DNA of 57,837 nucleotides from a virus. Its lineage: Duplodnaviria > Caudoviricetes. The position numbers were made by a program, and so were the translations under genes. The first letter of the stretch is position 1. Each line of letters starts with the position of its first letter. The notes beneath the pieces are model-generated. The model was not told where the DNA came from, searched no databases, and worked only from the letters and a program-made list of their open reading frames with translations. This document shows positions 958 to 57,837 of the stretch, in pieces. Location: the IMG/VR virus record IMGVR_UViG_3300022745_000038, positions 1-57,837 of that record; one strand, written 5' to 3'.

Positions 958-974
958 ACCGCCACAGTGGCGGA
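958..974. repeat. 17-bp palindrome copy 1 (aCCGCCACAGTGGCGGA, one outer mismatch), intergenic
   Basis: Read directly; 8 nt after the stop at 949. Confidence 0.9.
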
Positions 975-1018
975 CTCCAGATAGAGTCTGCACGCCTTTC
1001 CAACAACCCGAGGGGAAA

Positions 1019-1516
1019 ATGAAAACCGTACTCGCAATGATCGCCGCAGCACTGACATCGATGAACGCGCTCGCAACTGGCCCGTCCCCAGCGGCCCCAG
1101 CCATCAACCAATCGCCATCCATCCAGCAGACCGTATCGCCAACCGTGGCGCCGGTCATTGCCCCGCAAACGATCGGGGCATCAGACAACCACTTCGACAA
1201 CCACCAGCGTACGGTGGCCATCGGTCTGGCGGCTTCGGTATCGGCCGCGACCTGCTACGGGTCCATCCTCGGCGGGCTCGCAGTGTGGTCGAGCGAGCCG
1301 TGCGTCCGGCACTTCAAGTTCCTGCAATTCCTTGGTTCGCAGAATTTCCCGGCCGCGCATGAATTTCTGTGCCAAGACGACGACCAGCGCGCCGCGATCC
1401 TCGCCGCTGGCCAACAATGCAAGGGCGAGAAAAAGCGGTCCGGCCCGATCTTCCAGACCGGCGCGGAAGGGGATCACGGCTGGACTGCATACAGGCCATT
1501 CCGCCAAGAGCAGTAA
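1019..1516 (+). CDS. Hypothetical exported protein
   Basis: GAGGGG RBS; signal-peptide-like N-terminus MKTVLAMIAAALTSMNALA; four Cys. Confidence 0.7.
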   Translation: MKTVLAMIAAALTSMNALATGPSPAAPAINQSPSIQQTVSPTVAPVIAPQTIGASDNHFDNHQRTVAIGLAASVSAATCYGSILGGLAVWSSEPCVRHFKFLQFLGSQNFPAAHEFLCQDDDQRAAILAAGQQCKGEKKRSGPIFQTGAEGDHGWTAYRPFRQEQ

Positions 1517-1743
1517 CCAGGTTCCCGGGGCGACCCGGGGTGCCTGAATTTGCCCATTCCGTTGCGACTCCTTCGGCTCTAACCTCCGAGAGCCTCCTCC
1601 TGTAGTGCCGTGGGAGTGGAGTGGGTAATTTCAGGCGCAGTGCGGGCGTGCTGCCACGCGGGCAGCAGAGGTTCTCCTGCCTCGGTGACCGGCCGGCAAC
1701 CCGGCCCCGCCTGCTGCCTGACCACCAACCACTGGAGACCTGA

Positions 1744-2217
1744 ATGGCTTCGCTGAATCAAGTGAATCTGCTCGGCAATTGCGGCCGGGACCCGGATGTT
1801 CGATACACCACGGATGGCGCAGCGATCACGAACGTATCGATCGCGACCACCCGCTCGTGGAAGAACAAGGAAGGCGAGAAGCAAGAGGAGACCGAGTGGC
1901 ACCGCCTCTCGTTCTTCGGTCGACTCGCAGAGATCGCCGCCGAATACCTGAAGAAGGGGGACCCGGTCCTCGTCACCGGCCGCCTGCGAACCCGCAAGTG
2001 GGAAGACAAGGACGGCAACGAGCGGCATACCACCGAGATCGTGGTCGAGCAGATGCAGTTGCTGGGCGGCAAGCGCCGTGCCGGAGACGATGAGCCAGAT
2101 GACCGACCGCGCGCCAGCAGCAAGAAGAACGAGTCCAGGCAGGGATCGACGCCTTTGGGGCCTGATGATGACATCCCGTTCAACGGCGTGGACAAGCGCC
2201 TTGCCCTGATCCTTTGA
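1744..2217 (+). CDS. ssb: Single-stranded DNA-binding protein
   Basis: MASLNQVNLLGNCGRDPDVRY...TEWHR...GRLRTRKW, acidic DDDIPF tail; GGAG RBS. Confidence 0.97.
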   Translation: MASLNQVNLLGNCGRDPDVRYTTDGAAITNVSIATTRSWKNKEGEKQEETEWHRLSFFGRLAEIAAEYLKKGDPVLVTGRLRTRKWEDKDGNERHTTEIVVEQMQLLGGKRRAGDDEPDDRPRASSKKNESRQGSTPLGPDDDIPFNGVDKRLALIL

Positions 2218-2228
2218 CCGAGGAACCC

Positions 2229-2786
2229 ATGAACATCCGTGACTACCAATCCGCCGCGATGCAATTCCTGAATGACGACGTTCCGGATCCGATCAAGTTG
2301 ATCCACGGCCCGTTGGGCATGGCGAACGAAGCAGGCGAGGTGCTCGGTCTGTACAAGAAGCACCTGATCTACGGGAAGCCTCTCGACCTGCAGGAGGTGT
2401 GCAAGGAAGTCGGCGACGTCATGTGGTATGCCGCGCGGACGGCGCACGCCCACGGGTTCGGTCTCGGCGATTGGGGGGGCTCGGCGAGGATCATGTCCAA
2501 GGCCGATCGAAACCGAGGTCTGCTCCACTACCCCTCGGCACTCGCAGTGCGAACCGCGGCCCTACTCGACTCAGCCGAATCGGCGATGACGATTCGGCTG
2601 CCGATGGGGCTGGAAGACGTGGGCCTCGCGGTCGGGGTGATCGTCGTACGCTGCACGCAGATCCTTGACCGTCATGCCGTGTCGATCATCGACGCCATGG
2701 AGATGAACATCGAGAAGCTGTCCAAGCGCTACCCGAAGGGCACGTTCTCCGCATCCGACGCAATGGCCAAGGCGGACGAGCGGTGA
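2229..2786 (+). CDS. MazG-like nucleotide pyrophosphohydrolase
   Basis: LGMANEAGEV...KEVGDVMWY and NIEKLSKRYP motifs; GAGG RBS before ATG 2229. Confidence 0.85.
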   Translation: MNIRDYQSAAMQFLNDDVPDPIKLIHGPLGMANEAGEVLGLYKKHLIYGKPLDLQEVCKEVGDVMWYAARTAHAHGFGLGDWGGSARIMSKADRNRGLLHYPSALAVRTAALLDSAESAMTIRLPMGLEDVGLAVGVIVVRCTQILDRHAVSIIDAMEMNIEKLSKRYPKGTFSASDAMAKADER

Positions 2787-2852
2787 TGGACCCTTATCAG
2801 GTCCTGCGATTCATCCTCTTCGCCATGGCGATCGGAGCGGGAGGATGGACGT

Positions 2853-3470
2853 TCATCCAGATACTGGAGTGGTGGTGCGAGACTCGGGAACAACGACGCT
2901 CATCACGTCGTGAAAGTTCTCCGCGTCGAACGCCGTCGAGTGGCCCCAGCCGTCATGCCTGACCACCTGAATCGGAACGTTGGTTTTCACGTTCTGAGGG
3001 CCACGCCGACCGAGGTCATCGAATCCGAGTGCGTGGCCAATCAGCGTGTCAGCAATCACCATCGCCATGTCGGCCGTGCCGATGTGGATGGAGATGAGAT
3101 CCGCCTGAATCATGTTGATGCCGTTCGCGTCGCAATCCTCCGGGCACGCCGGGGAGATCAGGCTGACCTGGCCGAGCTTCGGCCATCCGAGTTCATCCAG
3201 CGCAAGACGCACCACGTTCGCTCCGTTGGAGTGGGCGACGATGTCAACCATCCAACCGGCGTCAAGGTAATACCCGATCTTCTTCGCCAACTTCGATCCG
3301 CGGTATGCCGTCACCGCTCCACGGGAAAGGGCATCCGTGAAGTACTCGAACGACTCAGCGCGATGATCAGGCCGGTTCAGGTGCGTCCAAGTCACCGCCC
3401 GGCTGGTCCAGTTCGACGTGTCCCCTGGTTTCGTGAAGATGCCGCAGACGTGGATGGCTACTCGTTGCAT
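2853..3470 (-). CDS. Alpha/beta-hydrolase (esterase/lipase-like)
   Basis: VHGIF-like VCGIF, nucleophile elbow IVAHSNG, later Asp and GHS; GAGAGG RBS. Confidence 0.7.
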   Translation of the reverse strand: MQRVAIHVCGIFTKPGDTSNWTSRAVTWTHLNRPDHRAESFEYFTDALSRGAVTAYRGSKLAKKIGYYLDAGWMVDIVAHSNGANVVRLALDELGWPKLGQVSLISPACPEDCDANGINMIQADLISIHIGTADMAMVIADTLIGHALGFDDLGRRGPQNVKTNVPIQVVRHDGWGHSTAFDAENFHDVMSVVVPESRTTTPVSG

Positions 3471-3614
3471 TGGGACCTCTCGTGGAGTTGATCTTCATCT
3501 CCGTCGTGCTTGCCATGGCCATCATGAAGTCTCTGGAGATGATCGGACCACGATGGCGGGCGGCCCTTGGTGGCGCCGCCCTCGCGTTCATTCTGGCCGC
3601 CGGCATTCTGCGCG

Positions 3615-6600
3615 CTACTGACGCATCGCCGCGCGTTGCAATTCCACAGTCCGGGCAATCTGGGCCCGTTGCTGAGACAGCCGGTCGATGACCTCGCGCT
3701 TCTCGCTCGGATCCATGGCTCGGTACTGAGCGAGGCGCAGTGCCTTGTTGATCTCGCCGATCTTCTTCTCCGCCTGCGTGTAGGCCTTGTTGAGAACGAT
3801 CTTGTCCTCATTCTCGGCCGCGAGACGGGTGGCCTTCTCCAGTTCTCCCAGTTCGCGCGCCTGCTTGATGTCGGCCATCACTTCGTGGACTGCTTTCGCC
3901 TGCTTGTAGAAGTCCTCGACATAGCGTGAACGGTTGGACGGGACTTCCTTCACGAAGTCACCGATCACAAACGTCTCATCCCACCGGCGCGTGGCGTGCG
4001 TTCTCCCGCGGAGGGGATCCGCCGCCATGGTGTCCACCCCCATCGCGATGTGCGAGCCAAGCCACCCGAAGTAGGCTCGGATCAAGTGGTCAACCTGCAC
4101 GGGAGAGATCCCGGTCGTGTCGCCAGCAGCGCCCAGCGTCTCGGCGATCCACGAGGTGTTGTAACTCTTTCGCTCGCTCTTCGAGAACCGTTCCATGCCC
4201 TTGGTTTCGATCTGCCGCCCGGTGAACGAGTCCTTGTTGGCGTACAGGTCGAGCGCCGGCTTGAACAGTTGCGGCACCGGGTTCATGGCGAAGGTGTCCT
4301 TGACCATGGACGCCATACGCTCACCCAACCGCTTCCCGGTCATCTCGTCGGAGATGACAAACTCCCAGGAGCGCTCCGCGATCGTACCAAGGGCACCAAT
4401 CTCGAATGGCTTGGGAATCCGGAACGCAGTGTCGCCGATCTTGAACCACCAATAGGCGTCCCGGTCCCAGTCCTCCCGGGCCTTCCAGTCGTCGTCGTCT
4501 GCGTAGGCGAGCAGTAGTCCGATCGACGCCAGCGCCACTGCGGCGGACACCGCGAACAGCCGGGTCGGGTCTTCCTTGCCGGCTCGCCCGAGTTTGTAGA
4601 GGCCCTGCGCGCGAGCGTTCAGGAACGGGACCACCTGAGACAGGAAACGCATGGCCACGAACGATCCCTGGAGTTGGAAGTCCAGGAAGTCGCGCGCCTG
4701 GTAGGCAGCCTCGAGCGGGGGCACACCGCGGGCGATCAGTTGCTTGTAGAGGGCCGCCCGGTTGATGTTCTCCATCCGGTCGCCGAAGTCCTGGTACGAG
4801 TCCCAGACCTTGCCGAAGGCGGCTTTGATCTTCTCCGGGGTGCTCAGGATGGTGTTCGCATCCACGCCCTGCTCGATCAGCCGCTTGGCGTGCTCGGCGT
4901 GGTCATCGTTGAACTGGCCGAAGCGCATCATTGCTCCGCCAAACAGCATCTGGGCGTACTCGGTCGAGTCCTTGCGCGTGCCCTGCCAGCCCTCCACCAG
5001 GTTCTTCGCCACGTTGTAGGACATGTCGTTCTGGCCGATCGCCGCCAGCGAATCCCGGATCAGGTTGCGGATCTTGAACGATGGGGAGATGGTCGTGCCG
5101 ATAGTCAGGGTGCGTTTGGCCTTGGACATCCAGTCCATCGCCCAGCCGCGCAGCGGGCCAGCCTCGAGGGCGGTGATGGCATCCAGCACGAACGGATCGC
5201 CCACCACCATCCAGTGCTCCTTGCCCTGGTCCATGAAGTAGGTCGCGCTTCCCTTGCCAGACGTGCGTTTGGCGATCTGGCGAGCCGTGTCGGCGTCAGC
5301 GGTGATCGCCACGCCCTGCCGCTCCGCCTCGGTCAGCGAAGCCGCAGCGGCTTGATTCGCCATGCTGGCGGAGATCAGGTGTGACCAGTTGCGCAGCGTG
5401 TTTTCCATCAGGTCGCCAAGGTTCTCCTCGCCACCCTTCAGTTTCTGGAACGCGCGCTGCCGCACCAAACCCTTGACCATCCCCGGGCCGCTGATCTCGT
5501 TGCCCTCCATCTCGCGATAGAAGGGGACGTAGAACTCCGATTCCCAGACGGCTCGACCGACCGGGTCGATCAGGCCGGTCTTTTCGGCGATGTCGAGCAC
5601 CGACTTGTTGTAGTCCTGCAACGTCTGTAGCGCCCGCGCGTAGGCCTGCGCACGCGAGGATCCGTCCGGCATGTTGCCCCGGTTCGCGCCTTGCAACGCC
5701 GCGATCTCGGCCGGCGTGAACAGGTGCTCCCTGCCCTCGATCATCAGTTTGGCCGACCGATTGCCGGCGACCCACGCGAGGAACCGGTCGTGCTCGCCAT
5801 TGAGCGCCTGCATGGCGCCCAGGAAGCCCTTGCCGTCGAGATCCCCGTAGATGTGTCCATCGGCATGCATCACCGGCTTGCCGTGCAGCAGGAGGCCTTC
5901 CAGAACCCCGTCCGCGCTTTTCGACATCCGCGCCAGGACGTAGGCCTTGTGGCTGAGTTTCTCCAGCGGGCGGAACTGGTCGAACACGCCCTGCACAAGG
6001 CGCGTCTTCCAGTTGTCCATCATCCCTGACACCTTCTCGCGCAGGGTCTTCTTCGGGGCGTAGGTGTCGATCTTGCCGGTGGCCGATTCAAGGGCGGCAT
6101 TGCCCTTGGCCCAGTCCGGCGTGCGCGAGACGGAGGCCATCACTTCCGGTCGTTGGCGTTCCGGTTGAGGTTGGCCGCGAACTCTCTCGCCACCTTCAGG
6201 GACCACGCCCTGTGGTTCCTGGCGATTCGAGGAGGCTGAGGTGCCGCGGTAGACGGCTTCGGAGATTCGACCTTGGGCGTATTCACTTTCGAGTGCCTCG
6301 CGCAATGATTGTCCGACGTTTTCATCAACGGCCGGGACGGAGGATCTGGCCACCACTGCTGCCTTCCCCTTGCCCCTGCCGTTGTCCACAACCACAATTG
6401 TCACGCGATCGTTGCCGCGATACCTATCGGCCAATTGGTCTACGACCTTTCTGGCTCCGACGTGGGTCTTCGCGTGCTCGTTCATCGGCACGGTCCGCCC
6501 CATACGCATTGCGCGCGGCAAAGCGCCATGCACCAGGGCCTCGACCGGGTCCCGGTACGTGTAGAGGATCGTCACGTCACGGCCGGACTTCAGGGCTGCC

Positions 6601-9600: not shown

Positions 9601-12600
9601 AGTGCCTGCACAGTCGCATTCGCGCGAAGCCCCTGCGCCCGGCGCATTGCCTCGCCACCGGTCGCCCGGTTCAATGCGTCGAACCCTCGGTGCCCGCCCT
9701 CGTGAGCCGCCACCCAGAGCGCACGCGCCCGGGATGGGATGGCCTCAGCAACAATGTAGACCCGGCCCGTGCCCTTGACGTAGGCGCCCTCAAGCACGTC
9801 TCCGCGCTGCAGCTTGAGCGCATCGCGAACATCGTCAGGCAGGTCAGCGGCCGTGGCCACCACTTCGACGTTCTTGCGTGGGCCGATCCATGCTCGGACT
9901 TGGGCGACCGTGGGGTTCTCGCTCCGCCGCGAGTCCGCCACAGTGGCGGACTGCTCCGACTCCGGCTGCGCCGCGGCGGGGGGCACCGCGCGATCGGTGG
10001 CGGCGCGCTGGGGGGCTCGGGGAGTCGTCCGCTCGCCGCCGGCCCACTTGGTCACCCGCTGGGTCGTATCGCCGTTGTCGAACCAGTCCTGCAGTTGCTC
10101 CGGCGTCATGCCGACCACACCACCGTGGCGGGCCGCGCCCTTCTCGTACTGCGCGCGGTACAGGCGCAGCGCCTCCTCGGCGTTCTGGGCCCCAGCCACG
10201 ATCTTGTGCTCGTCGAATCGACCGCCCTCAGTGTTCTGGTCGATGACGAAGAACTTCCCGCGCCACGACAGGGGCGTCCCCGCCTTGACGAAGATGTCGA
10301 TGTGGTCGCCGTCCTTGCCGCGCGGCACCCCGGTGATGTAGCCGTAGTGGACTCCGCGCATCTTCACGCGCCAGCGCTTGCCGTTCGGGTCGACTCCTGT
10401 GCGTTCCGATTCGTTCGGGTTCTCCACCGAGATGTTGAACCCAGCAAGGGAAAACTTTCCCTTTTTATAGTTGCCAGCCCGCGTCATTGGCTCGGTAGGC
10501 TGGGGCAGGTCGTTCTTCTTCGAGGTGGCCGCCTCGTGCGCAGCGCGATCGACCCGCGCGCCGCGCGCCGGCACGATGTCCTCCGGCATCTCGTTCGGCG
10601 CCGAAGGAATGCGCTCATCCTGCGACAGGGTGGCACGGGCGTCGGCCGCACGCTTCAGACGTTCCACCTCGAGCGAGGTGGCCTTGTTGGCAGCAATCCC
10701 TTCCCGGCGCAGTTCGGCCTCGAACCGGCGCACCGGATCAGCCACCCCCTCTTCAGACATCACGCGGGACAGGATCTGGTCGCGGCGGGCCGCAGCCTCA
10801 TGCCGGCGCGCTCCTTCCACGCGGGCGTCCACGTCTGCCGTGGTCGCAGTTCTGGCGGATTCGGCGGCAGTACGCGCAGCCGCCTCAGCCTCGGCCATGG
10901 CTACGCGATCGGAAGGCTCCGCGAGCGCTTGGGCCTTTGTCGCGTCCGATCGCTCTGCGGCCCTCTGGGCGGCTCCTGCGGCGTCTTCCGCGGCGGCCTC
11001 CTGGAGGGGGCGCTGGTCCTCGACCCGGTTGGCGCGGTTCGGAAGTTCGCCACCGTAGGTCGACACCTCCCCTTCGACCGTGCGCCCGGTCGGCCGCTCG
11101 CCCGTCTCGGCAGGAAGTCCGCCACTGTGGCGGACTGGCGCGACCGCCGTGCCCGGCCCAGCAGGGGCCTCCGGGGTGTTCTGCCCCATCACGAAGTCCG
11201 GCCGCTCGTTCCATGCCGTCAGCAGACGCTCGACCCCGTCAATCGCCTGCGTGCGCGTCACCTCGTCCAGGCGCGGGTTGCGCGCGATGGCAAGAGCCTG
11301 CATCAGTTCGTTGGTCGACTGCGGTCCGAACCGCTCGTCCTCGCGCATGCCGCGCAGGATGTCCCGATCGATCGCCGCATCGGCGAACTTCACCCGACCC
11401 TCGAGCGTGTCGTAGAACGGGGCCTCCGCCCCGCTCACCGCGTTGCTGGCAGCCTGGATGGCATCATCCACAGTGCCTGCGTTGGCTATGTCCGCCAACA
11501 CCTTGCGGGTCTTGTCCTCTTCGATCGCGCCCGCGCGCCTCGCAGGGGTCAGGACTGCGCCGGGCCCGGCAATGATGCCCTCTCGCGCCGAGTTGAGAAG
11601 GACGTCTTCGAACAGCCCCTGCTCCGGGCGAACCTTCTGCACGCCGACATTGGTGGCGAACTGCTCTGCACCACCCTGCAGGCCCTCGGATCCGACAGCC
11701 ACCACCGTGCGCGCGCCACGGCCGGCGATCCCAGTGACGCCGGCCGCCGAACCTTCCAGACCGAAGCGCCCGGTGATTGCGCCCATGCCGGCAGCCAATC
11801 CGATCGACGCCCACTCCTCAGCCGTGCGCGGCAGTCTCTGCCCCAGCGCCTTCTTGGCATCCGCCTCTGACATCGTCTGGCGCATCTCCTGGTACACAGG
11901 AGAGTTCGCCTGCAGGTCAGAGTCCTTCAGTTCCTGGATCTTGTCGTAGATGTTGCCGCGCACCTCGCCTGCGGCCATCCCGGCCCCAACGCCCTCGAGC
12001 ACGTGCCGCGCAGCGGCCTCGCCAACGCCGGCCCCCTTGAGAGCCAGCCCAAGGGCCTTGAACGGTCCAAAGTTGCCAGCGAAGTCAGCGACCAATGACA
12101 GCGGGTCCACCGTGGCAACATGCTTGGCCCAGATGGCGACCTTGTCCACCTCGCCGTCCGCACGCTCGAGTTGGTTCTGCAGGCGACGGTTCTGGACCTT
12201 CTGCCATTCCGACTGCTTCTCCTGCCCGCTCTTGATGAACTCCTCGAGGGCGTTGGAGATGAAGTTCCCCGGAGAAACCAGATCGGGGATGGTCTTGACC
12301 AGACCTACCGCAGCATTCGCGGTGTTGATGACCGTATCGTTGACCGCAGCCAGCGTCGATCGCTTCGGAGCGCCACCCTTCGCCTTGGGCGACAACGGGC
12401 TCGCGTCGATGTCGAACTCTTCCTCCGAAGGAGCAGTCTGCTGACCGCGCGCTTCTGGGAGTTCTGCGCCGGAAACCATGTCGAAGGCCTGCGCCAACTT
12501 CTGGCCGTACTTCGGGTCCTCAGCGTAGCCGCCCTGAACCATGCCCTGCACGAAACGGCTGATGTCGCCACCAGCCCCGACCGCCCCTCGATACCGCGGG

Positions 12601-14553: not shown

Positions 14554-15453
14554 TCACCCCTGAGAGTTGATCATCCCGACGCGAGGCATGTTCATTTGCC
14601 CGCCGGGGTACAGGTTCGTTTGCTGGTTCAGCCTGAACGGGATCCCGGGGATGTTGTTCTGCCGGGCCAGTTTCTGCTGGAGAAGTTCCAGTTCCATCGC
14701 GTCCTTCTCGCGCAGGTACTTCAGGCGCTCTTGATTCGGGTCCTTCGTGAATCCCTTCTCGACGAATCGCCCGCCCATGTTCAGCGCCGTGCTTGCGAGC
14801 AGCGGGTTTCCTTTCCCCCACTCCATGAGGCCATCGATCAGCCCGCCGGATGGCTTGCCGGCCGCCGTCGAAGGGGGGCCCTGAAACTGACCGGTGTTGT
14901 AGTCGCCAAGCCTGTCTTGCCACTGCGCGGCGTCCGATCCAGCCGGAGCGCCGCCGGACAGCTCGGCCGGGATCTGGGAGTCGATCATCCCCTTCCCAGC
15001 AAGCGATTGCTCGGCGAGCGGCTGGGATCCAACCGAATCCGCCACTGTGGCGGGCTGCGCGGCATCCACCCCGCCGGGCAACGGGGACTGCGCGACCTGG
15101 TCCTTCGCAGAAACTCCGAACGTCTGCACCCCTTCATTGGTCGGGGCAGTCGCCAACCCAGTGGCAGCGGTCGGGTCCTTCCCCGACAGGGTCGAGGTGG
15201 TCATTGCTTCCGTGGTCGTCGGGGCGGCAGCATCCGCCACTGTGGCGGACGTGCCGGCCTCAGCCCCCGCAGTGGCTGCGCCAGAAAGCAGCCCTGACCC
15301 GAGACTGATCACGGACCCAGCAAGAGCGACGTCCTTGTTATCCATGGCCGCACCAGCGGTCGCCACCACCGCACCAGCAATCATCGCGCCGGTGACCGCA
15401 ACCCCAGCCACTTCAGCGCCAACCAACATCAGGATCGGAATCGCTACTGCCAT
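14554..15453 (-). CDS. Putative DNA ejection/pilot protein
   Basis: Hydrophobic G/A-rich N-terminus (MAVAIPILMLVGA...); GGAG before ATG 15453. Confidence 0.6.
   Translation of the reverse strand: MAVAIPILMLVGAEVAGVAVTGAMIAGAVVATAGAAMDNKDVALAGSVISLGSGLLSGAATAGAEAGTSATVADAAAPTTTEAMTTSTLSGKDPTAATGLATAPTNEGVQTFGVSAKDQVAQSPLPGGVDAAQPATVADSVGSQPLAEQSLAGKGMIDSQIPAELSGGAPAGSDAAQWQDRLGDYNTGQFQGPPSTAAGKPSGGLIDGLMEWGKGNPLLASTALNMGGRFVEKGFTKDPNQERLKYLREKDAMELELLQQKLARQNNIPGIPFRLNQQTNLYPGGQMNMPRVGMINSQG
15038..15054. repeat. 17-bp palindrome copy 4 (one outer mismatch), encodes PATVAD
   Basis: TCCGCCACTGTGGCGGg. Confidence 0.9.
15233..15249. repeat. 17-bp palindrome copy 5, encodes SATVAD
   Basis: TCCGCCACTGTGGCGGA. 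Confidence 0.95.
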
Positions 15454-26345: not shown

Positions 26346-27637
26346 CGTCGACCCTTCCGGACGTGCCATGTGCGCTTCCACTCGGTGATGAACGCGCCGC
26401 CAGTCGTCGGGTCGAGCGTCGTGGTGGCGCTGCCATCGTCCTGACGGCTCAAGCTCTGCCCGCGTCGCATGTACCCGCGCACGACGTCCTCTTGGTAGAA
26501 CCTCGGGCTGACGGCATAGATGCCAAGGAATGCTGCGCCCTCCACGACCGGCGCGACGGCACGCTTGGCAGATGCGCGCGGCCGCTCATCTTGCCCGCGG
26601 AACGGCGGCATCCTGTGAAACGGAGACATCTGCGCGTCTTCGTTCGGCCGCGCCGGGCGTCGCTGAAGCGTCTGCCTCTCATCTGGCGCGATGAGTGGCG
26701 GGCTCCTGAAGGTCGAGAACGATGACGGATCATCCCAGCGCAGAGACACGCGCTTCTGGACCGGGCGATCGTCCGACGACGATTGGAATGGCGCAGCAGG
26801 CGACCCCGGAAGCAGAGCGCCCTTTTCGTCGAATCTCGTTGGAGCCTGAGCGCGACGCGGCCGCCCTTGGTCCTCTCCTGTGAATGGCAGCCCTGAATCA
26901 AGCAACAGAAGAGATTTGACCTGCTGCTCATCCCTCCCTGCGAGGAGCGGCCGCCTCTGCTGACGGGGAGAATCGGCATCGAAGAACGGGGCCGCTGGCC
27001 ACCCCGGCAGCATCGTCTGCTGATCGTCTGCTCGAACAACGTAAGTCCGCCGGATCGGCCGTCCATCATCTGCCCCGACAAATGGGGCCGAGATGACCAC
27101 CGCAGTCAGCGTCAGACCCGGCGCGTCATCGAAACGGCGAGCAATCCGTCGAATCGACGGCTGGATATCACCAGAGTCGGCGAAGACCGCCACTGTGGCG
27201 GATTGCGCGAAGGTCGACGCAGAGACGTCATCAGGTCGCTGCGGACGCGTCCGAGATCCTTGGCGAACGTTCTCCTCGAAGAACGGAGATCGCGTTGTGA
27301 ACGCCGTCAGGAGCGGCGATGACGCATCGTCCTGGCGCTGCTGGATCCGGCGAGATGCCGCGCGGATATCGCCGTCATTCGCGAACGGCGCAGATGCAGA
27401 AGACGTGAACGTCAGCGCGGCCGCGTCATCGACAACGGCCCTTGCCGTTCGCTTCGAAGGATGGCTGTCATCACCCCCAACGAACGGAGACGCGGCCACA
27501 ACGGCCAGCGTCGTCAGCAGTATCGCTGGGGCGTCTTCTATGAAACCGCGCTGACCACGCAGTCGCGGGCGGCCCTCCTCTTGGGCCTTGAATGGAGATG
27601 CTGCAGGCGTCCCGCCGCTGTTGAGCAGAAGGGACAT
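26342..27637 (-). CDS. Hypothetical protein with about 12 internal 31-36-aa repeats
   Basis: Recurrent (S/A)PF-x3-DD-x-RP-x-RR-x5-DD units. Confidence 0.65.
   Translation of the reverse strand: MSLLLNSGGTPAASPFKAQEEGRPRLRGQRGFIEDAPAILLTTLAVVAASPFVGGDDSHPSKRTARAVVDDAAALTFTSSASAPFANDGDIRAASRRIQQRQDDASSPLLTAFTTRSPFFEENVRQGSRTRPQRPDDVSASTFAQSATVAVFADSGDIQPSIRRIARRFDDAPGLTLTAVVISAPFVGADDGRPIRRTYVVRADDQQTMLPGWPAAPFFDADSPRQQRRPLLAGRDEQQVKSLLLLDSGLPFTGEDQGRPRRAQAPTRFDEKGALLPGSPAAPFQSSSDDRPVQKRVSLRWDDPSSFSTFRSPPLIAPDERQTLQRRPARPNEDAQMSPFHRMPPFRGQDERPRASAKRAVAPVVEGAAFLGIYAVSPRFYQEDVVRGYMRRGQSLSRQDDGSATTTLDPTTGGAFITEWKRTWHVRKGRR
27186..27202. repeat. 17-bp palindrome copy 7 (one outer mismatch), encodes SATVAV
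   Basis: aCCGCCACTGTGGCGGA. Confidence 0.9.
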
Positions 27638-31959: not shown

Positions 31960-32555
31960 GCCGGCACCCCGAGCTTCGCCTTGATCGCGTCAATCGCTGC
32001 GACCAACTCGTCCCGCTCACGCGCCCTCGACTCGACTTGATCCACCATGCCGGAGAGCACCTCGCGCTGGGCCTCGACCTCGGCCTTGACCTTGGCCAGT
32101 TCCTCCGCGGCTTTGGACACTCGAGCATCCACCATGGCCTTCTTCTCGGCCGCATAGTCGGCAGCGGCCTCCTTGGCTCTGCGCGCGATCTCTGCGGCAT
32201 CAGCGCGCGCCTCGTCTCGAAGCGCCTTCATCTGGTTCTCGGTCTTGATGACGTTGTCAGCGCACGTGGCCTTCAGGTCTTCCGCGTCCGCCTCTGCCTT
32301 GATGCGGGCATCGATCGCGACCTGCGCCATGTCCCGCAATTGGCTCACTCGCGCCTCGAGTTCCCGCCTTGTGTTGTCCCACGTCGTAATGTCCTTCGCC
32401 GCAGCGGACAACTGAAGGACTCCGTCGAGCATGCGCTTGAACGCATCCACGCTTTCGGCCGCCTCGAGTAGCCCCGGAAACATCGGCCCATCAGGGAAAT
32501 TCGTCGGATCCGCCACAGTGGCGGATTCCGCCTGCGTTGCCTTCTTCGTCGCCAT
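31956..32555 (-). CDS. Coiled-coil hypothetical protein
   Basis: A/E/K-rich heptads. Confidence 0.65.
   Translation of the reverse strand: MATKKATQAESATVADPTNFPDGPMFPGLLEAAESVDAFKRMLDGVLQLSAAAKDITTWDNTRRELEARVSQLRDMAQVAIDARIKAEADAEDLKATCADNVIKTENQMKALRDEARADAAEIARRAKEAAADYAAEKKAMVDARVSKAAEELAKVKAEVEAQREVLSGMVDQVESRARERDELVAAIDAIKAKLGVPA
32509..32525. repeat. 17-bp palindrome copy 8, encodes SATVAD
   Basis: aTCCGCCACAGTGGCGGAt. Confidence 0.95.
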
Positions 32556-36378: not shown

Positions 36379-36395
36379 TCCGCCACAGTGGCGGA
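36379..36395. repeat. 17-bp palindrome copy 9, directly abutting the TerL stop codon
   Basis: TCCGCCACAGTGGCGGA. Confidence 0.95.
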
Positions 36396-39681: not shown

Positions 39682-40105
39682 GTGCGTGGTCCGGCGTTGA
39701 ACTGGCCGGATTATGCACGCCGTCCGCCACTGTGGCGGACTGTTCGCTAGGCATAGGGGGGACCATGGCCTCAGCCATGCGATAGGCCATATCCCTGACG
39801 TCCGCGATGATGTCGTCAGCCCAATCCGGAGTAGCCCGAACGGACATCCGCGCCCATGGAAGCAGGTCGCCCGCGTACCGCATCGCCCACTCCGCAACTC
39901 GCAGCGCTCGATCGGATCCAGCCTTCTCCTGCCACGCGGATAATTTTCGCCTCTCCTCGGCCAAGTCTTTCTCGACCCGGTCCAAGACCTCCTTGCGAAC
40001 AAGATCAACTGGCCCACGACCAGGAATTACGAGGCAAGACGTGCCACATCCTTCGTTGCAAAGCCCCCCCACCATCACGCACAACTTGATCACCCCCGGC
40101 TCCAT
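39602..40105 (-). CDS. Hypothetical protein
   Basis: GGAG before MEPG; 3' end overlaps the endolysin. Confidence 0.5.
   Translation of the reverse strand: MEPGVIKLCVMVGGLCNEGCGTSCLVIPGRGPVDLVRKEVLDRVEKDLAEERRKLSAWQEKAGSDRALRVAEWAMRYAGDLLPWARMSVRATPDWADDIIADVRDMAYRMAEAMVPPMPSEQSATVADGVHNPASSTPDHAHDVDPEPAGRVGPVQPGGGRRLGFPT
39723..39739. repeat. 17-bp palindrome copy 10 (SATVAD), about 40 nt upstream of the endolysin start
   Basis: gTCCGCCACTGTGGCGGAc. Confidence 0.95.
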
Positions 40106-42659: not shown

Positions 42660-42676
42660 TCCGCCACAGTGGCGGA
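42660..42676. repeat. 17-bp palindrome copy 11, abutting the thermonuclease stop
   Basis: TCCGCCACAGTGGCGGA. Confidence 0.95.
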
Positions 42677-43156: not shown

Positions 43157-43173
43157 TCCGCCACTGTGGCGGA
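43157..43173. repeat. 17-bp palindrome copy 12 (21 bp), just upstream of the thermonuclease RBS
   Basis: agTCCGCCACTGTGGCGGAct. Confidence 0.95.
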
Positions 43174-47736: not shown

Positions 47737-48374
47737 CTATGTGGACCAACCAAGCCCGCAAGATGTACGACCGTCGCGCCGAGTTCAACGCCTCGACCTC
47801 GTCAGACGACCAAGAGCCGCGCCCGAGCGACAACAACCTCGAAGCGTGGGCCGTATTCCTGAAGACCTACCCGGACGTCGCTGACTGGATCTGGAGCAAC
47901 TCGGCGCGGAACGATTTCGCCAAGTCGCTGTACGCGCAGGCGGTGTCGCGCGGCTTTCTGTCGGCCAAGCAAATCGACGCCGTGCGCGCCAACATCTCCC
48001 GAGGGTCAGCAATCCGCCACAGTGGCGGACTCGGACTTCAGAAACTGTTCACCGTCCTGCAGAAGCACTCGAAGTTCTACGCCGATCGGTTGACGATCAC
48101 GCGCAAGAACGGCGACACCCTCTGCTGGGTGCTCTGGGACGAGACATGCGTCGGCAAGATCGAGCGCGGCACCGGGACCCTGTTCGCCAAGCGGGCCGGG
48201 CAGGATCTGCAGGAGATCCGCGCCCTGCTCGAGGAGTTCGAGGAGGACCCGCTGGCCGCAGCGGTGAAGTACGGGAAACTCACCGGCCGTTGTTGCTCAT
48301 GCTCCCGCGAATTGACGGCAGATGGCAGCATCGAGGCAGGCATCGGCCCGATCTGCGCCCAGAAGTTCGGTTGA
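47733..48374 (+). CDS. Protein with a C-terminal DUF6011-like Zn motif
   Basis: GRCCSCSRELT..SIEAGIGPICA; FAKSL..LSAKQI. Confidence 0.75.
   Translation: MTMWTNQARKMYDRRAEFNASTSSDDQEPRPSDNNLEAWAVFLKTYPDVADWIWSNSARNDFAKSLYAQAVSRGFLSAKQIDAVRANISRGSAIRHSGGLGLQKLFTVLQKHSKFYADRLTITRKNGDTLCWVLWDETCVGKIERGTGTLFAKRAGQDLQEIRALLEEFEEDPLAAAVKYGKLTGRCCSCSRELTADGSIEAGIGPICAQKFG
48013..48029. repeat. 17-bp palindrome copy 13, encodes IRHSGG
   Basis: TCCGCCACAGTGGCGGA. Confidence 0.95.
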
Positions 48375-48974: not shown

Positions 48975-48991
48975 TCCGCCACAGTGGCGGA
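48975..48991. repeat. 17-bp palindrome copy 14 (21 bp), intergenic
   Basis: ggTCCGCCACAGTGGCGGAcc. Confidence 0.95.
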
Positions 48992-50577: not shown

Positions 50578-50579
50578 CC

Positions 50580-53118: not shown

Positions 53119-53489
53119 CTCTTCGTCCTCTTGCTGGCCACCACGGCCAACGCGCGCCGCGCGGTCGCCTCGGCATCAGCACGGCGCTTTGTGGCTGCGG
53201 CGTGGTTCTCCGCCACCCACGCCCGCACCCGCTCCGTCAGGTCGATCCCTCCGGCCATGCACTCGATCTCGCGCACCGTGGGTTCTGCCACCCCCACCAC
53301 CTCCGCCACTGTGGCGGATCTCGGATGCTGCCCGGGATCCTCTCGGAACAGTACAACCCGATCTCCGACAATCCGCCGCGTCACCCCGGGGCGTGGGGCG
53401 GCGCCGATGTTCAGGCTGTATGCGTACCGAATATCCGGTATCGGATTTGCTTCGCGCATAGCGATCTCCTTCGATGCATTGTTTCCCAC
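53115..53489 (-). CDS. Hypothetical protein
   Basis: Coupled to the downstream gene; start may be 53459. Confidence 0.5.
   Translation of the reverse strand: MGNNASKEIAMREANPIPDIRYAYSLNIGAAPRPGVTRRIVGDRVVLFREDPGQHPRSATVAEVVGVAEPTVREIECMAGGIDLTERVRAWVAENHAAATKRRADAEATARRALAVVASKRTKR
53302..53318. repeat. 17-bp palindrome copy 15, encodes SATVAE
   Basis: TCCGCCACTGTGGCGGA. Confidence 0.95.
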
Positions 53490-53920: not shown

Positions 53921-54739
53921 CTACACCGACTGCATCAGATTGACAAGTGCTCTCACCCCCATTCTGCGGTGCATGTCGTTCGCATCCTCGCCCTCAAGCG
54001 GGGACATCACCCACGGCCGGCCGATTTTCTCTGCCGCTTCCTGCCCGCGCCGGCTCTCGTCATGATCGGCGAAGACCTTGGCGTCGCTGAAGTATGGCGC
54101 TACGTGCTCCATGTTGCCGGCAGAGAAGCAGACGATGACCTGCGTCGGCAGCATCATCGACTCTGCGGCCGCGCGAATCGACAGGCCCGTGGCGTAGCCT
54201 TCGCACAACCACTTCGATCGCACCGCCTTGCGGGGGCCCATGACGTGAACAGCGCCCTTGGCACGACCGCCCGGGAGGAACTTCTTGCCCCCGTCCTTGG
54301 CGATCCGCTGGACGTTGATCAGGTCGTCTGTCCGATGGTCCCGCATCGGGACGAGAAGAACATCGTCAAGGACGAACCCTGTAGCCTTCTGGAGGCCCTT
54401 GGCGACGAGATAGGCGTGCCCGGCCAGTTCGGCCTCTCCCATCATCCTGCGCGCCTCAGCGGCCGCCTGAGCGTGCTGGCGGGCCATTTTCTCGGCCTTC
54501 GCCCGCCGCTCCGCCACTGTGGCGGACCAGTCTGCCGGCGCGGCATCCTGGCCCTTCCACATCACGGGGGAATCCATGGTCGCCCAGTTCTGCGCCCAGC
54601 CAATGTTTCGTTCGAGCTTGTAGGCCCCGTTCCGGCGGTGCGCGTGATCTGCGGTCGGGACCCGGTGCCACGCGCCGTCTGCAATGAGTCGATCGATGAT
54701 CAGGCCATGCGCGAGCGCGAACGATCGGAAGTCGCTCAT
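53921..54739 (-). CDS. TOPRIM-domain DNA primase (TraC-like)
   Basis: HAYL..KG, LLVPM, KKFL.GG, CEGYATGLS, FSAGN, ADHD, DAND. Confidence 0.9.
   Translation of the reverse strand: MSDFRSFALAHGLIIDRLIADGAWHRVPTADHAHRRNGAYKLERNIGWAQNWATMDSPVMWKGQDAAPADWSATVAERRAKAEKMARQHAQAAAEARRMMGEAELAGHAYLVAKGLQKATGFVLDDVLLVPMRDHRTDDLINVQRIAKDGGKKFLPGGRAKGAVHVMGPRKAVRSKWLCEGYATGLSIRAAAESMMLPTQVIVCFSAGNMEHVAPYFSDAKVFADHDESRRGQEAAEKIGRPWVMSPLEGEDANDMHRRMGVRALVNLMQSV
54510..54526. repeat. 17-bp palindrome copy 16, encodes SATVAE in the primase linker
   Basis: TCCGCCACTGTGGCGGA. Confidence 0.95.
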
Positions 54740-57084
54740 GCCGCCCTCCGCGCTTTGCCGCGCGCCCAGCGGATTACGGCGGACTTGATATACGAGTAGA
54801 TGGCCGGATCAGGATGCGCTGCCGCGTGCGCCATCGAGTAGTCGCGAGGTGGCCAGTCGCCATAGATCGAGTGGTACTGCGCCTTTGCGAACCGCTCGGC
54901 CGATGACACGTCACCACGCTTCCAGTCGAGAGCCACCGCAGCGATCTCCTTCCAGGCGTAGAACTTGTTCTCCTGCCATGCGTGTTTGTTCTTCCGCTGG
55001 CCGATGTCCAGTTCGACCATGGTGCCGGCGACGTTCTCCACCATCGACAGCCGGGCCGGGCGCTCCCATCCGCAGGACGGGCACACTTTCGCCCCGCCAA
55101 GAGCATAGTGGCACGACGGGCAGGCGAACATCTCCCGCTCTTCCTCGGTCGGCTCCTTGCGCTCCTTGGCGTCGAGAGACTCCCCGGACAACTCCTGCAC
55201 GCCATGGGCGAACAGATCGATGGTGTCGTCGAAGAACCGGGCGAAATTGCCTGAGTGATCAAGCCACAGGGCGTACTCCTTGCCTTCGTGGGGCCGCATC
55301 ACCCGGCCCAACTGCTGGATGTGCGACGAGAACGACTTCCGGTAGGGGTGCGCGTCCACCCCACAGAGAATGTGCGTGGCATCGAACCCCTTGCCCAGCG
55401 CCACGCAGGAAATGAGCCCGACGATGTCACTGCCCGGGGCCTTGAAGTCCGCGATCAGTTGCGCGTTCTCTTCGTCCTTGTTGCGGTAGGACACCACCTG
55501 AAAGTTGTGGCCGGCAGCCTGAAACTGCCGCGCCAGTTCGATGCAATGATCCACCGTCGCGCCGAATACGATCGACGGAACCGGCCCGCCGAAGTGTTCC
55601 TGCGTCTTCGCAACCCACTCGGCAACCACGTCACCGACAATGGCCATTCCGCGCTCGGTCAGGGCCGCCTCGGTCCACTCACCGGTCGATGACACCTTGG
55701 CGCCGCGCATGTCGGCGGCAACCGCCAGATAGGGTCGGATCGGGGCGAGGTGTCCTTCCTCCACCAGTTGATCTGTCGTGGTGCAACTCACCACTTTGCT
55801 GAACAGGTCGCCGAGTCCCTTGGTGAAAGGCGTGGCGGTCAGGCCGACCACGAACACGTCAGGGTGCTCGCGCATGAATTCCGCAGTCGCCTTGAACGTG
55901 GTGTGGCAGTTGTGGACTAGCCTCCCATCAGCGAAGTAAGAAGGGTGCCCGGAGACGTGCAGGTTGTAGACAACCGCATCGCTTCCGCATTCTTCACGCG
56001 AAACACTGACCACCCTCTGGAACCAAGAAAGGCCGTCTTCCTCGCGTCCGCCTCCCGAACCTTCGTCGAATAGTGACTCCCCCCGTCTACCTCGATCGCC
56101 ACCATCATTGATGGACTCGCCAAGTCGATCTTGTAGTGCGACGGAAGCCCGCCCGCCCTCCTCTGCCCGGTCGGGACAATGAATTCTGCGCTCCAACCTT
56201 CCCCAAGAATCTGCAACAGCCGTTGCTGAGGAACGGAGAGAGGACTCCCATTCCCACCATGCACCTTTGGCTTGTGCCCAATCTTCCTCAACGTCGTCGA
56301 CATCTTCTGACGAACTTCTTGAGAGTGCATTGGGTTTTTCAATTTCTTGGCACAACTTTTGGAGCAGGTCACGCGCGCGACCCACACCACTCTTGATTCC
56401 GCCTGAACTGTTCCCCTGTGGTTTGGCCTGAACTGCGGCCTGTAAAGCACGCCACATTGCGGGCAAATCTTCGACTCTCGCAACGCGGTGACCTGCCAAC
56501 TCTCTCGCGGCGACCCATCCTCCATCCGTGAAGAACGGGTGCGAACCTGTGCAAACTGTTTCATGTCCATCCTCGAATGCGACGCGAACCATATCCCGTC
56601 GGCCTATGGGGGCGGCTACCGTTCCGCGAACAATCCCGCGTCCAACAGCGGTAAGAACGGCGTCTCCTGGCCTCACAGATTCTATAGCAACACCCCCGTC
56701 CGGGGTCATCACCTTCGTTCCAGCGACAAAGCACTCGTCCACAACCAGAAGATCAACCTGCTCCGGCCACCCGCGCCGGGCAACGGTCTGCGGGCTCGCC
56801 ACCTGGATGTACTCGTACCCGCGAGCGCGCCAGTGGTTGCCCTGGATCACCCCGTGTGGGATTCCGTACCGGTCGAGCGTTGCGCTGGTCTGGTCGATCA
56901 GGGAGATGCGATCGGCCATGAAGACGCCACGCCTCTTCCGTGACCAGCAGTTGTGCAGGAAGTGCGAGGCAACGACCGTTTTCCCTGCCCCGGTGGGCAG
57001 GTACAGCAGTTGATGCTTATCCGTGGGCGCGTTTGCCCGAAGCGTCGCTACGGCCTCTTCCTGATACGGTCTGAGTTCGACCAT
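54736..57084 (-). CDS. SF2 DNA helicase (DExH, RadD/YejH-like) with an intein
   Basis: LRPYQ, PTGAGKT, DE[intein]CH, GLTATP, KGFD, QQLGRVMR, Zn finger. Confidence 0.95.
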   Translation of the reverse strand: MVELRPYQEEAVATLRANAPTDKHQLLYLPTGAGKTVVASHFLHNCWSRKRRGVFMADRISLIDQTSATLDRYGIPHGVIQGNHWRARGYEYIQVASPQTVARRGWPEQVDLLVVDECFVAGTKVMTPDGGVAIESVRPGDAVLTAVGRGIVRGTVAAPIGRRDMVRVAFEDGHETVCTGSHPFFTDGGWVAARELAGHRVARVEDLPAMWRALQAAVQAKPQGNSSGGIKSGVGRARDLLQKLCQEIEKPNALSRSSSEDVDDVEEDWAQAKGAWWEWESSLRSSATAVADSWGRLERRIHCPDRAEEGGRASVALQDRLGESINDGGDRGRRGESLFDEGSGGGREEDGLSWFQRVVSVSREECGSDAVVYNLHVSGHPSYFADGRLVHNCHTTFKATAEFMREHPDVFVVGLTATPFTKGLGDLFSKVVSCTTTDQLVEEGHLAPIRPYLAVAADMRGAKVSSTGEWTEAALTERGMAIVGDVVAEWVAKTQEHFGGPVPSIVFGATVDHCIELARQFQAAGHNFQVVSYRNKDEENAQLIADFKAPGSDIVGLISCVALGKGFDATHILCGVDAHPYRKSFSSHIQQLGRVMRPHEGKEYALWLDHSGNFARFFDDTIDLFAHGVQELSGESLDAKERKEPTEEEREMFACPSCHYALGGAKVCPSCGWERPARLSMVENVAGTMVELDIGQRKNKHAWQENKFYAWKEIAAVALDWKRGDVSSAERFAKAQYHSIYGDWPPRDYSMAHAAAHPDPAIYSYIKSAVIRWARGKARRAA
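55909..56733 (-). mobile_element. Intein (275 aa) in the helicase DECH motif
   Basis: CFVAGTKV start, block B TGSHPF, end VYNLHVSGHPSYFADGRLVHN followed by Cys. Confidence 0.95.
55917..56564 (-). CDS. Zn-finger + DUF559/Vsr-like endonuclease in the +1 frame inside the helicase intein
   Basis: CPQC..CSKSC; KIDLA..AIEVDGGSH..D..K..FL..RGW.VFR; GAGG 6 nt before ATG 56564. Confidence 0.85.
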   Translation of the reverse strand: MKQFAQVRTRSSRMEDGSPRESWQVTALRESKICPQCGVLYRPQFRPNHRGTVQAESRVVWVARVTCSKSCAKKLKNPMHSQEVRQKMSTTLRKIGHKPKVHGGNGSPLSVPQQRLLQILGEGWSAEFIVPTGQRRAGGLPSHYKIDLASPSMMVAIEVDGGSHYSTKVREADARKTAFLGSRGWSVFRVKNAEAMRLSTTCTSPGTLLTSLMGG

Positions 57085-57837
57085 TCTGTCTTTCCTTCCT
57101 CTGAGCGTTCTTCAACTCCGTCGTGAGACGCGCAACCCGGTCCATAAGTTCATCTCGCGCCGCTTTGAGCGCACGATTTTCTGCGCGCAGGCGCTGCATC
57201 TCCTCGAACTGCTCATTGTCCTCGAACGCCTTCGCGCTCGCCGCGAGATCGGTCATGTCGGCCAGATGGTCCTGACACTCCTGATACTTGATGAGCAACT
57301 CCTCGTATTCCGGTCCGAGTGGGGACTTTTCCTTCGAGGGTGGCGCGAACGGGGCCTCAGCTTCACGCACTCCAACCTCGCCTTGGAGCACCTTGTCGGC
57401 CATCCCCTCACGCACCAAGCGCTGCGCTCGCTCCATGGTCCGCTTGCCGACGTCGGCAGCTTCCGCCAACTCCTCGACCGTGGCGGGATTTCGGTCCGCC
57501 ACAGTGGCGGACTTGGAAGTGATTGATTTTCCAGACTTCTCTGATCCGCCACTGTGGCGGACTGGTTCCGTCATGCCGGTAATTTCCGCGACCTTGACGA
57601 TGGCAACCGCGATCTGGGTCTTGTTCTGGTGCCGGCGGCGCGCGTTCTTCGATATGACCCAAAGTCCCGGCCTTTTGTCGGCGAAGTCCTCAAACCATGG
57701 CTCGACTCCAACCTCACGGCACGCCAGATACCGGTGCCACCCGTCAAGGATCATCCCCTCGTACATCGTGATCGGCTCCAGAAGGCCCTGGCTCTCTATG
57801 TCCGATGCCAGCGCTTTCAGTTCCGCGGGCGTCATGT
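57017..57837 (-). CDS. ParB/Srx N-terminal domain + HTH + coiled-coil protein (probably 5'-truncated)
   Basis: LASDI..GLLEPI..ILDGWHRYLAC..N.RRRH; HTH TVEELAEAADVGKRTMERA. Confidence 0.85.
   Translation of the reverse strand, partial: MTPAELKALASDIESQGLLEPITMYEGMILDGWHRYLACREVGVEPWFEDFADKRPGLWVISKNARRRHQNKTQIAVAIVKVAEITGMTEPVRHSGGSEKSGKSITSKSATVADRNPATVEELAEAADVGKRTMERAQRLVREGMADKVLQGEVGVREAEAPFAPPSKEKSPLGPEYEELLIKYQECQDHLADMTDLAASAKAFEDNEQFEEMQRLRAENRALKAARDELMDRVARLTTELKNAQRKERQNGRTQTVSGRGRSDASGKRAHG
57495..57511. repeat. 17-bp palindrome copy 17, SATVAD in the ParB-like gene
   Basis: gTCCGCCACAGTGGCGGAc. Confidence 0.95.
57545..57561. repeat. 17-bp palindrome copy 18, VRHSGG in the ParB-like gene
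   Basis: TCCGCCACTGTGGCGGA. Confidence 0.95.

Follow-up and report, generated by a model that had tools for sequence, protein, structure and literature searches.

Whole-genome palindromes in phages have been known since 2015 from Cluster O mycobacteriophages, without an assigned binder or function. Passages of PMC4351075 describe there a 17-bp dyad repeat, present in 34 copies in the ~70-kb genome of Corndog, whose function was unassigned; the repeat is absent from the host genome, and the authors proposed that a dimeric protein binds it and considered a function in transcription improbable. No assignment of its binder was found in the literature searched. The Cluster O repeat is the closest published case to the element reported here, a 17-bp palindrome, TCCGCCACWGTGGCGGA, that recurs throughout the virus record IMGVR_UViG_3300022745_000038. 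This whole record, one contig of 57,837 bases with 63% G+C, was analyzed and is called the window below. As far as those passages describe the Cluster O repeat, it resembles the window palindrome in having 17 bp, invariant arms and copies in gaps, at gene 5′ ends and in genes, and its phages likewise encode a ParB-like protein (gp90). The two differ in sequence, as the Cluster O repeat is TGTTCGGNNNCCGAACA with a 3-bp variable centre, and its host is actinobacterial; furthermore, no copy lies inside gp90, and gp90 is absent from the tblastn matches of the window's ParB-like family. In Corndog (NC_004685, L297), two repeat copies at 16274 and 18294 flank the gp91-gp90 operon. For the window, a candidate binder can be put forward, namely the phage's own ParB-like protein (P0001).

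Plasmid RK2 carries 12 OB sites, mostly intergenic. According to passages of PMC11790492, its ParB-family protein KorB recognizes a short, odd-centred palindrome and acts at a distance as a sliding clamp. KorB and the window protein share an N-domain and a helix-turn-helix (HTH), the dimerization domain of KorB having a predicted coiled coil as its putative counterpart, and the palindromes of both are scattered over a replicon of ~60 kb. In contrast, KorB as described there has CTP-binding motifs, the ParA partner IncC and the locking partners KorA and TrbA, whereas the window protein reads DGWHR at the GERRxR position; RK2 is a plasmid and the window a phage. Our working gene set comprised 63 genes (92.5% coding), and PHROG and Pfam family scans covered part of these 63 open reading frames (ORFs); among the ORFs scanned, no KorB-type partner gene was found for the ParB-like protein. 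Noc, a ParB paralogue of Bacillus (PDB 7ng0, 7nfu, 7ol9), has some 70 palindromes over the whole chromosome and is a host nucleoid-occlusion factor with a membrane-targeting helix. It is the best PDB profile match of the window protein (7ng0) and likewise has dispersed sites. Phage N15 uses SopB, four inverted-repeat (IR) centromere sites and the partner SopA for plasmid partition of its linear prophage, as stated in passages of PMC7205306. Common to the N15 so described and the window are a phage-encoded ParB-type protein and palindromic sites standing as separate single copies; N15 differs in its four sites and SopA partner, and the window ORFs scanned revealed no ParA, integrase or telomerase. 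The N15 IR sites are reportedly dispersed through the genome, a statement attributed to Ravin and Lane in 1999. Stoperators of Cluster A phages (L5), some 20 to 30 copies bound by the immunity repressor of a temperate phage, are asymmetric and transcription-oriented. Like the window palindromes, they are a short site repeated many times over a phage genome, often between closely spaced genes, but the window site is symmetric and does not show the stoperator pattern.

The window holds 18 copies of the 15-bp core CCGCCACWGTGGCGG, each with 0 mismatches; all 14 non-central core bases are identical in 18/18 copies. Fifteen of the 18 are perfect 17-mers, and the copies at 958, 15038 and 27186 have one outer mismatch. 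These numbers and coordinates agree throughout with the original prediction, which had been made from the letters alone and had allowed that degenerate copies might have been overlooked; none was missed at ≤2 mismatches. Perfect 17-mers averaged 0.00 in 100 dinucleotide shuffles. With ≤2 mismatches allowed, the core occurred 20 times versus 0.40 in dinucleotide shuffles (largest 3), these 20 being the 18 exact copies plus two 2-mismatch matches at 4532 and 14184, which are at chance level. The conserved unit extends to 21 bp, RRTCCGCCACWGTGGCGGAYY, with purines at 30/36 half-site positions at −10 and 32/36 at −9. Outside ±10, flank identity fell to background (mean 18.4/60 positions over 351 pairs). 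The symmetry through the centre and the lack of conserved flanks beyond 21 bp fit a dimeric DNA-binding protein, as had been predicted, and the central symmetry suits duplex recognition by a symmetric dimer better than a hairpin. Dispersal was even over the whole genome, with a mean gap between sites of ~3.2 kb and a largest gap of 9.9 kb. The copies are the following.

958..974: copy 1, one outer mismatch (A for T); intergenic; exonuclease-like ORF 104-949 stops 9 bp before it
9934..9950: copy 2, perfect; in the 3104-aa polyvalent virion protein, read as SATVAD (aa 994-999)
11118..11134: copy 3, perfect; in the polyvalent protein, VRHSGG; kept in relative L156
15038..15054: copy 4, one outer mismatch; ORF 14554-15471, PATVAD; a perfect 17-mer in L156 despite diverged flanks
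15233..15249: copy 5, perfect; ORF 14554-15471, SATVAD; central base flipped in L156
25098..25114: copy 6, perfect; ORF 24395-25315 adjoining the capsid gene, SATVAD, in a variable N-terminal stretch
27186..27202: copy 7, one outer mismatch; ORF 26342-27637, SATVAV
32509..32525: copy 8, perfect; codons 11-16 of ORF 31956-32555, SATVAD
36379..36395: copy 9, perfect; intergenic, adjoining the large-terminase ORF at its stop codon (36396)
39723..39739: copy 10, perfect; upstream of the endolysin domain in ORF 39037-40017 (PHROG match from aa 110), probably non-coding
42660..42676: copy 11, perfect; intergenic, adjoining the SNase-like nuclease ORF at its stop codon (42677)
43157..43173: copy 12, perfect; at or just upstream of the SNase-like ORF start, upstream of the family match
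48013..48029: copy 13, perfect; DUF6011 protein ORF 47682-48374, IRHSGG
48975..48991: copy 14, perfect; in the gap between ORFs 48635-48964 and 48984-49292, running into the start of the latter
53302..53318: copy 15, perfect; ORF 53115-53489, SATVAE
54510..54526: copy 16, perfect; Toprim primase gene, SATVAE, in a hypervariable, indel-rich linker
57495..57511: copy 17, perfect; ParB-like gene linker, SATVAD; kept in L293
57545..57561: copy 18, perfect; ParB-like gene linker, VRHSGG, 50 bp from copy 17; kept in L293

In our gene set, 12 sites lie in genes and 6 outside, a slight shift from the 13 coding and 5 intergenic copies originally counted; the copies at 39723 and 43157 precede the family matches of their ORFs. 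The earlier description of a genome-wide network mostly hidden inside genes holds for the network and for the 12/18 coding copies, yet it is non-coding DNA that is enriched, with 6/18 sites in 7.5% of the sequence (binomial P = 0.0015). The in-gene readings were those predicted, (S/P)ATVA(D/E/V) at 9 sites and RHSGG at 3, and the remaining reading, PPxWR, occurs in no credible gene. The copies occupy two of the three frames, and those in genes show both orientations of the central base. Where homologues exist for comparison, the host positions of the sites are variable, indel-rich or disordered. The copies occupy the places of lowest constraint, namely short intergenic gaps and disordered linkers, where they are read as SATVAD or RHSGG.

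That selection acts on the DNA and not on the peptide, as the original prediction had proposed, was borne out by codon shuffling and by relatives. In 500 protein-preserving synonymous-codon shuffles, the mean was 0.046 sites (largest 1), far below the 12 observed in genes, and the palindrome encodes 9/9 ATVA and 3/3 RHSGG peptides of the proteome. L156, a 6.4-kb contig of a Pseudomonadota metagenome-assembled genome (MAG), has 84.2% DNA identity to the window over 5,925 aligned bases; it keeps 3/3 sites of the shared region with all 14 non-central core bases while their flanks have diverged, and one central W is flipped. L293 (75% DNA identity) likewise preserves the two sites of the ParB-like gene, at their spacing of 50 bp. 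The flanks in the relatives were thus 16-25% diverged while the sites stayed unchanged. An adapter or assembly artefact, which would have undone the prediction, is contradicted by an independent assembly: a Logan contig (44,277 bases) recovered from the probable source run matches 37838-57811, where nine of the sites lie, with 1 difference. Three other freshwater runs yielded identical short contigs, one of which spans site 42660. Two "joints", 48028/54510 and 40917/57499, have sides of 20-21 bases at repeat copies and were taken for assembly-graph ambiguity. The repeat is real and under DNA-level selection.

A family-alignment search gave 71 viral loci of the ParB-like family, 47 of them with a match spanning the linker that holds copies 17 and 18. 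Of these 47 genes, 28 contain a perfect palindrome of 20-29 bp, with arms of 10-14 bp, at an offset of 266-329 nt in the match, where the codons correspond to those of the window sites. Perfect palindromes with arms of at least 10 bp numbered 39 in the 681,397 bases of the loci, and 29 of them fell inside the 120-nt interval at this place in the gene, where the density was 5.1 per kb versus 0.015 per kb elsewhere, a difference of ~350 times. In 22 of the 28, at most 1 base separates the arms. The palindrome sequence varies from subfamily to subfamily (e.g., AACTCCGCCACGTGGCGGAGTT, AATTCCGCCAGCTGGCGGAATT and GAAAAGGGTGAACCTGGTTCACCCTTTTC), and the recognition helix RT[VM]ERA goes with TCCGCC half-sites and RTIQxAK with GGGTGAAC. 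The position ties the palindrome to the ParB-like gene across the family, and by this comparison the ancestral place of the site is the linker DNA between the ParB N-domain and the HTH, in the gene itself. No description of such an in-gene palindrome rule for this viral ParB branch was found in the literature searched.

In relatives, further copies of the same palindrome were found 7-9 kb away from the gene. A complete 63-kb genome contains 2 copies, partial genomes contain 4 and 3, and five GGGTGAAC-group genomes contain a single copy apiece. The circular 49.5-kb MW202426.1, which has the ParB-like gene, helicase, primase, polyvalent-protein analogue and capsid in common with the window, contains one perfect in-gene copy and one degenerate copy, with none elsewhere. 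Since the relatives hold 1-4 copies, the 18 of the window represent an expansion in this lineage atop an ancestral in-gene site. In a control, a 6-bp-arm palindrome in at least 3 copies was found in 1/80 capsid-anchored loci versus 6/71 ParB-anchored ones; the capsid-based relatives (80 loci kept of 110) have 52-60% aa identity and are too distant to reveal whether the sites are insertions. Some relatives carry additional repeats. In L243, the linker of the ParB-like gene is duplicated and holds two palindromes at a distance of 48 bp, and ~1.4 kb upstream of the gene (5264-5594) lie tandem TCCGCG/CGCGGA short inverted repeats, six copies each. L235 and L255 have extra AACTCCGCCACGTGGCGGAGTT copies between A-runs and T-runs (e.g., L255 3498 and 19663), which may double as bidirectional terminators.

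The candidate binder is encoded at the end of the contig, which removes ~15 codons from the 5′ end of its gene.

57017-57835, minus strand: ParB/Noc-like gene (P0001), with an N-domain (DGWHR), a disordered linker holding copies 17 and 18, an HTH and a coiled coil

P0001 matched PHROG 4715, "ParB-like partition protein" (E = 1.1e-8). In the PDB, Noc was the first match of the family profile (7ng0, E = 3e-5), followed by ParB and Spo0J; these alignments take in the N-domain as well as the HTH, and the HMMER alignment paired the family's T..E.A..AGVS.RTI..AK with the Noc HTH. A PDB search with P0001 alone gave chance matches only, so that profiles were required. A structure predicted from the end-truncated P0001 was poor (predicted local distance difference test, pLDDT, 66.8); the full-length homologue P0006 (77% identical) was modelled instead, with a pLDDT of 85.7. 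Foldseek with this model listed 11 matches at E ≤ 0.001, all Spo0J, ParB or KorB (KorB structure 8qa9 at 6.7e-4), and Noc followed at 1.8e-3. In the model, helices at 135-178 with pLDDT 86-94 form the predicted HTH region, residues 190-265 form a long two-helix coiled coil, and the linker between N-domain and HTH is predicted to be disordered (pLDDT below 50); Pfam DUF7491 matches 4/12 homologues. The nearest ESM Atlas clusters of P0001 are viral ParB/RepB/Spo0J. P0001 belongs to the ParB family by PHROG, PDB profiles, fold search and Atlas clusters. Homologues 75-77% identical to it keep both RHSGG and SATVA, and the linker of the window protein is ~20 residues longer than that of distant homologues. 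A metagenome scan with P0001 gave two short loci only. A link to 5mYOX was also considered and set aside: the ParB of thymine dioxygenase systems lacks a DNA-binding domain, according to PMC13229309, and no dioxygenase was present among the window ORFs scanned.

The ParB-like gene heads a replication module with two further genes.

54736..57084, minus strand: superfamily 2 (SF2; ResIII/DEAD) helicase with an intein, directly downstream of the ParB-like gene
53921..54739, minus strand: Toprim DNA primase, third gene of the module

A helicase follows the ParB-like gene in 39/71 homologous loci, and a primase does so in 35/71. In Acidovorax phage AP1, the ParB-like/helicase/primase trio follows an Xre-type regulator and small early genes, which is the position of O and P in lambdoid phages. 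The spacer between the in-gene pair of sites in the window has 45% GC versus a mean of 63%, placing it in the lowest 1% of 40-bp windows. In the primase gene, the site replaces linker sequence and adds no length. The helicase intein is covered by Hint, Vint and Intein_splicing matches over residues 118-392, between ResIII/DEAD and Helicase_C.

We consider it fairly probable, on these sequence comparisons and the predicted fold, that the palindromes are cognate loading sites, of the parS/OB kind, of the phage's own ParB-like protein. RRTCCGCCACWGTGGCGGAYY would then play for this protein the part that parS, OB and the Noc-binding sites (NBS) play for ParB, KorB and Noc. The protein would dimerize via its C-terminal coiled coil, and its two HTH motifs would read the half-sites TCCGCCAC. 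In this lineage, the in-gene site was duplicated in place and then multiplied to at least 18 copies, and one site per ~3.2 kb would permit loading along the whole chromosome. Because the module occupies the lambdoid O/P slot, the bound protein would be expected to nucleate a replication-linked nucleoprotein complex. Binding could result in the entry of helicase and primase, in coating, compaction or silencing of the genome through spreading or clamping, or in both. An origin output is favoured by the O/P-like slot, by the O-like genes of two other viral contigs described below (G002 and G003) and by the GC-poor in-gene spacer, whereas a coating output is favoured by the ParB architecture and the even whole-genome dispersal. 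A broader proposal is distinctly more tentative: that this is a large, mostly viral ParB branch, missed by Pfam ParB_N, whose genes carry their own docking palindrome in the linker, and that here, with the palindrome spread about every 3 kb, loading marks the chromosome as "self" and organizes it for replication, compaction or protection during the action of the phage's own nucleases, as a viral counterpart of Noc or KorB that uses sites embedded in coding DNA.

Several observations weigh against assigning the sites to the ParB-like protein. First, three other complete contigs of viruses (G002, G003 and G004) contain clusters of the identical 17-mer, and neither BLAST (E ≤ 0.01) nor the family hidden Markov model (E ≤ 10) found a ParB-like gene in them. 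By BLAST, no protein is common to the window and all three, and the only protein linking the window to any of them is a DUF1064 gene, in one contig. In G002 (L218), 2 sites 31 bp apart lie at ~10624-10669 in the linker-coding part of an O-like initiator gene; in G003 (L215), 3 sites and a one-mismatch copy lie at 13237-13486, again in the linker-coding part of an O-like initiator gene. These O-like genes fall in PHROG families "replication initiation O-like", and homologues of their proteins keep the ATVA and RHSG peptides there. G004 (L220) has two copies at ~11187-11306 in a 471-aa ORF without a family match; a gene beside this ORF carries an SGGKDS motif, presumably that of PAPS-reductase-like (IbrA-like) proteins. 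The alignment of the O-like and ParB-like HTH regions by hhalign was weak, with probabilities of 9% and 22% that offer no more than a lead, and the ParB-like family against P0004 gave a probability of 0.2%. For these contigs, either two folds would share a strongly diverged HTH or a third factor would read the site. Second, the in-gene palindrome is not universal: 8 of the 47 genes have arms of 6-7 bp only and 11 have none with arms of at least 6, the ParB-like gene of the cultured phage AP1 has an imperfect palindrome only, and in L244 a five-copy palindrome differs from the one in its ParB-like gene (CGGCACCSGGTGCCG at 2819, 10343, 13667, 16483 and 2338; in-gene AACCTCGCCACGGTGGCGAGGTT). The correlation of recognition helix with half-site is also confounded by shared descent. 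Third, several ParB hallmarks were not found. Pfam ParB_N (PF02195) gave no match at E ≤ 0.1 to P0001 or to 12 family-alignment members, DGWHR stands in place of the CTP-binding motif GERRxR, the aligned positions reading DGWHRY in 40/40 sequences, and no ParA was found among the window ORFs scanned with PHROGs or Pfam.

A related explanation keeps the same binder and differs in what binding achieves. The palindromes would be strict origins or iterons, the in-gene pair being primary and the 16 others secondary origins or helicase-primase entry points, and the ParB-like protein would be an initiator or replisome organizer, without spreading or coating. The place of the gene at the head of the helicase and primase module, in the O/P slot in AP1, speaks for it, as do the GC-poor spacer and a basal state of one or two in-gene copies; the ORFs scanned revealed neither a DNA polymerase nor another initiator. 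Initiator genes that contain their origin are familiar, with the lambda ori inside gene O and the SPP1 oriL inside gene 38. In lambda, as in the window, the sites lie in linker-coding DNA of the presumed binder at the head of a replication module, and the clusters in the O-like linkers of G002 and G003 represent this lambda-O-type arrangement with the window's very palindrome. The lambda O protein differs in having an O-type winged helix instead of a ParB fold, and lambda has one origin versus 18 sites. Moreover, GC windows revealed no longer AT-rich tract near the in-gene pair that would mark an unwinding element, and the cumulative GC skew of the window falls steadily, without inflection. 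We know of no precedent for 18 origins in 58 kb, and to our knowledge the ParB fold is not an initiator fold, which also counts against strict origins. We therefore regard this explanation as unlikely, though it fares best among the alternatives.

If instead the site belonged to a host protein, a global regulator or nucleoid protein exploited or evaded by unrelated phages, its multiple copies in three contigs without a detectable ParB-like gene and with almost no shared proteins would be accounted for. Several observations argue otherwise. In the 2.2-Mb MAG that holds L156, the motif occurs only on the phage-like contig (3/3 copies). It was found in at least 120 genome stretches, but 119 of the 120 listed are single-copy and from unrelated phyla; by a rough estimate, the single-copy occurrences among the matches listed are at chance level. 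Furthermore, the palindromes change by ParB-like subfamily at a fixed codon position, which is not expected of a host site. A host binder is accordingly rather doubtful.

A nucleic-acid structure, i.e., an RNA or single-stranded DNA hairpin or a cruciform serving as terminator, processing site or priming signal, is very improbable. A GC-rich stem of 6-7 bp is possible, the copies at 36379 and 42660 stand against stop codons, and the extra copies in L235 and L255 are flanked by A and T runs. However, the 14 non-central bases are invariant among copies and relatives, without compensatory stem changes, and the would-be loop CACWGTG shows no more variation than the stem. None of the 18 window copies is followed by a T-run, so that they do not look like intrinsic terminators, and twelve copies lie inside genes, with both central-base orientations. 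In the 28 in-gene palindromes of the family, symmetry runs through the centre in 22, a feature that a hairpin would not need. Least credible of all is a tiny mobile in-frame insertion without a site function, like the Rickettsia palindromic element (RPE) or the REP and MITE elements: it would agree with the occupation of tolerant linkers and gaps in two of three frames and with the ~20 extra residues of the ParB-like linker, but similarity ends at 21 bp with flanks at background, contrary to REP, MITE and RPE, site positions are conserved across relatives, the primase site adds no length, and no transposase-like gene was seen among the ORFs scanned.

If binding by the ParB-like protein is true, the in-gene palindromes would amount to a code of binding specificity for a large ParB branch of viruses, one without Pfam ParB_N matches. 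A survey of ParB folds makes no mention of palindromes in the passages available of PMC12704722, which build its domain-fusion analysis on PF02195, the very model that fails to match this family. Binding would also make the window a natural case of dual constraint, with DNA sites superimposed on coding sequence, yield orthogonal protein-site pairs of the kind used in DNA labelling, and bear on the part of ParB-fold proteins in phage replication initiation.

The status of the contig end, which cuts the ParB-like gene, was also examined. Circular closure was suggested by a script that joined the window end to its start and continued a minus-strand ORF by 25 codons, and it was rejected. Similarity to L294 (96% identical) and L293 (75%) stops exactly at 57837, where their N-termini differ from the joined reading, and in the probable source run two 188-base contigs (depth 8.3 and 3.9) continue differently past the window end. 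Because of this break in L293 and L294 and the two alternative continuations, the contig is taken to end inside the ParB-like gene at an assembly branch. L294 has 1,970 bases upstream with another palindrome copy, matching nothing in the window. The record thus probably lacks some sequence, possibly with more sites.

The rest of the window is that of a tailed phage, with large terminase, portal, major capsid, endolysin, small terminase, SNase-like nuclease, SSB and MazG genes besides the replication block of ParB-like gene, intein-containing SF2 helicase and Toprim primase. No repressor, integrase, telomerase or transposase-like gene was seen among the ORFs scanned. Megablast of window positions 1-20000 found no close relative among deposited phages, in which the best capsid match is 42.5% identical. 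The nearest named phages with the ParB-like gene infect Comamonadaceae (Acidovorax, Rhodoferax), and the sequence occurs in freshwater metagenome runs, with no RNA run among those listed. The polyvalent virion protein that hosts copies 2 and 3 (3615-12929, minus strand; 3104 aa) combines glucosaminidase, inorganic pyrophosphatase, DUF7178, Zeta_toxin-like and LPD38 domains, and its counterpart in MW202426.1 (3145 aa) is annotated "coil containing protein". The large-terminase ORF (36396-38918, minus strand) is open over 840 aa; the terminase matches are confined to residues 406-820, and its N-terminal part matches an unknown PHROG. The small-terminase-like gene (44350-44910, minus strand) lies 5.4 kb from the large terminase.

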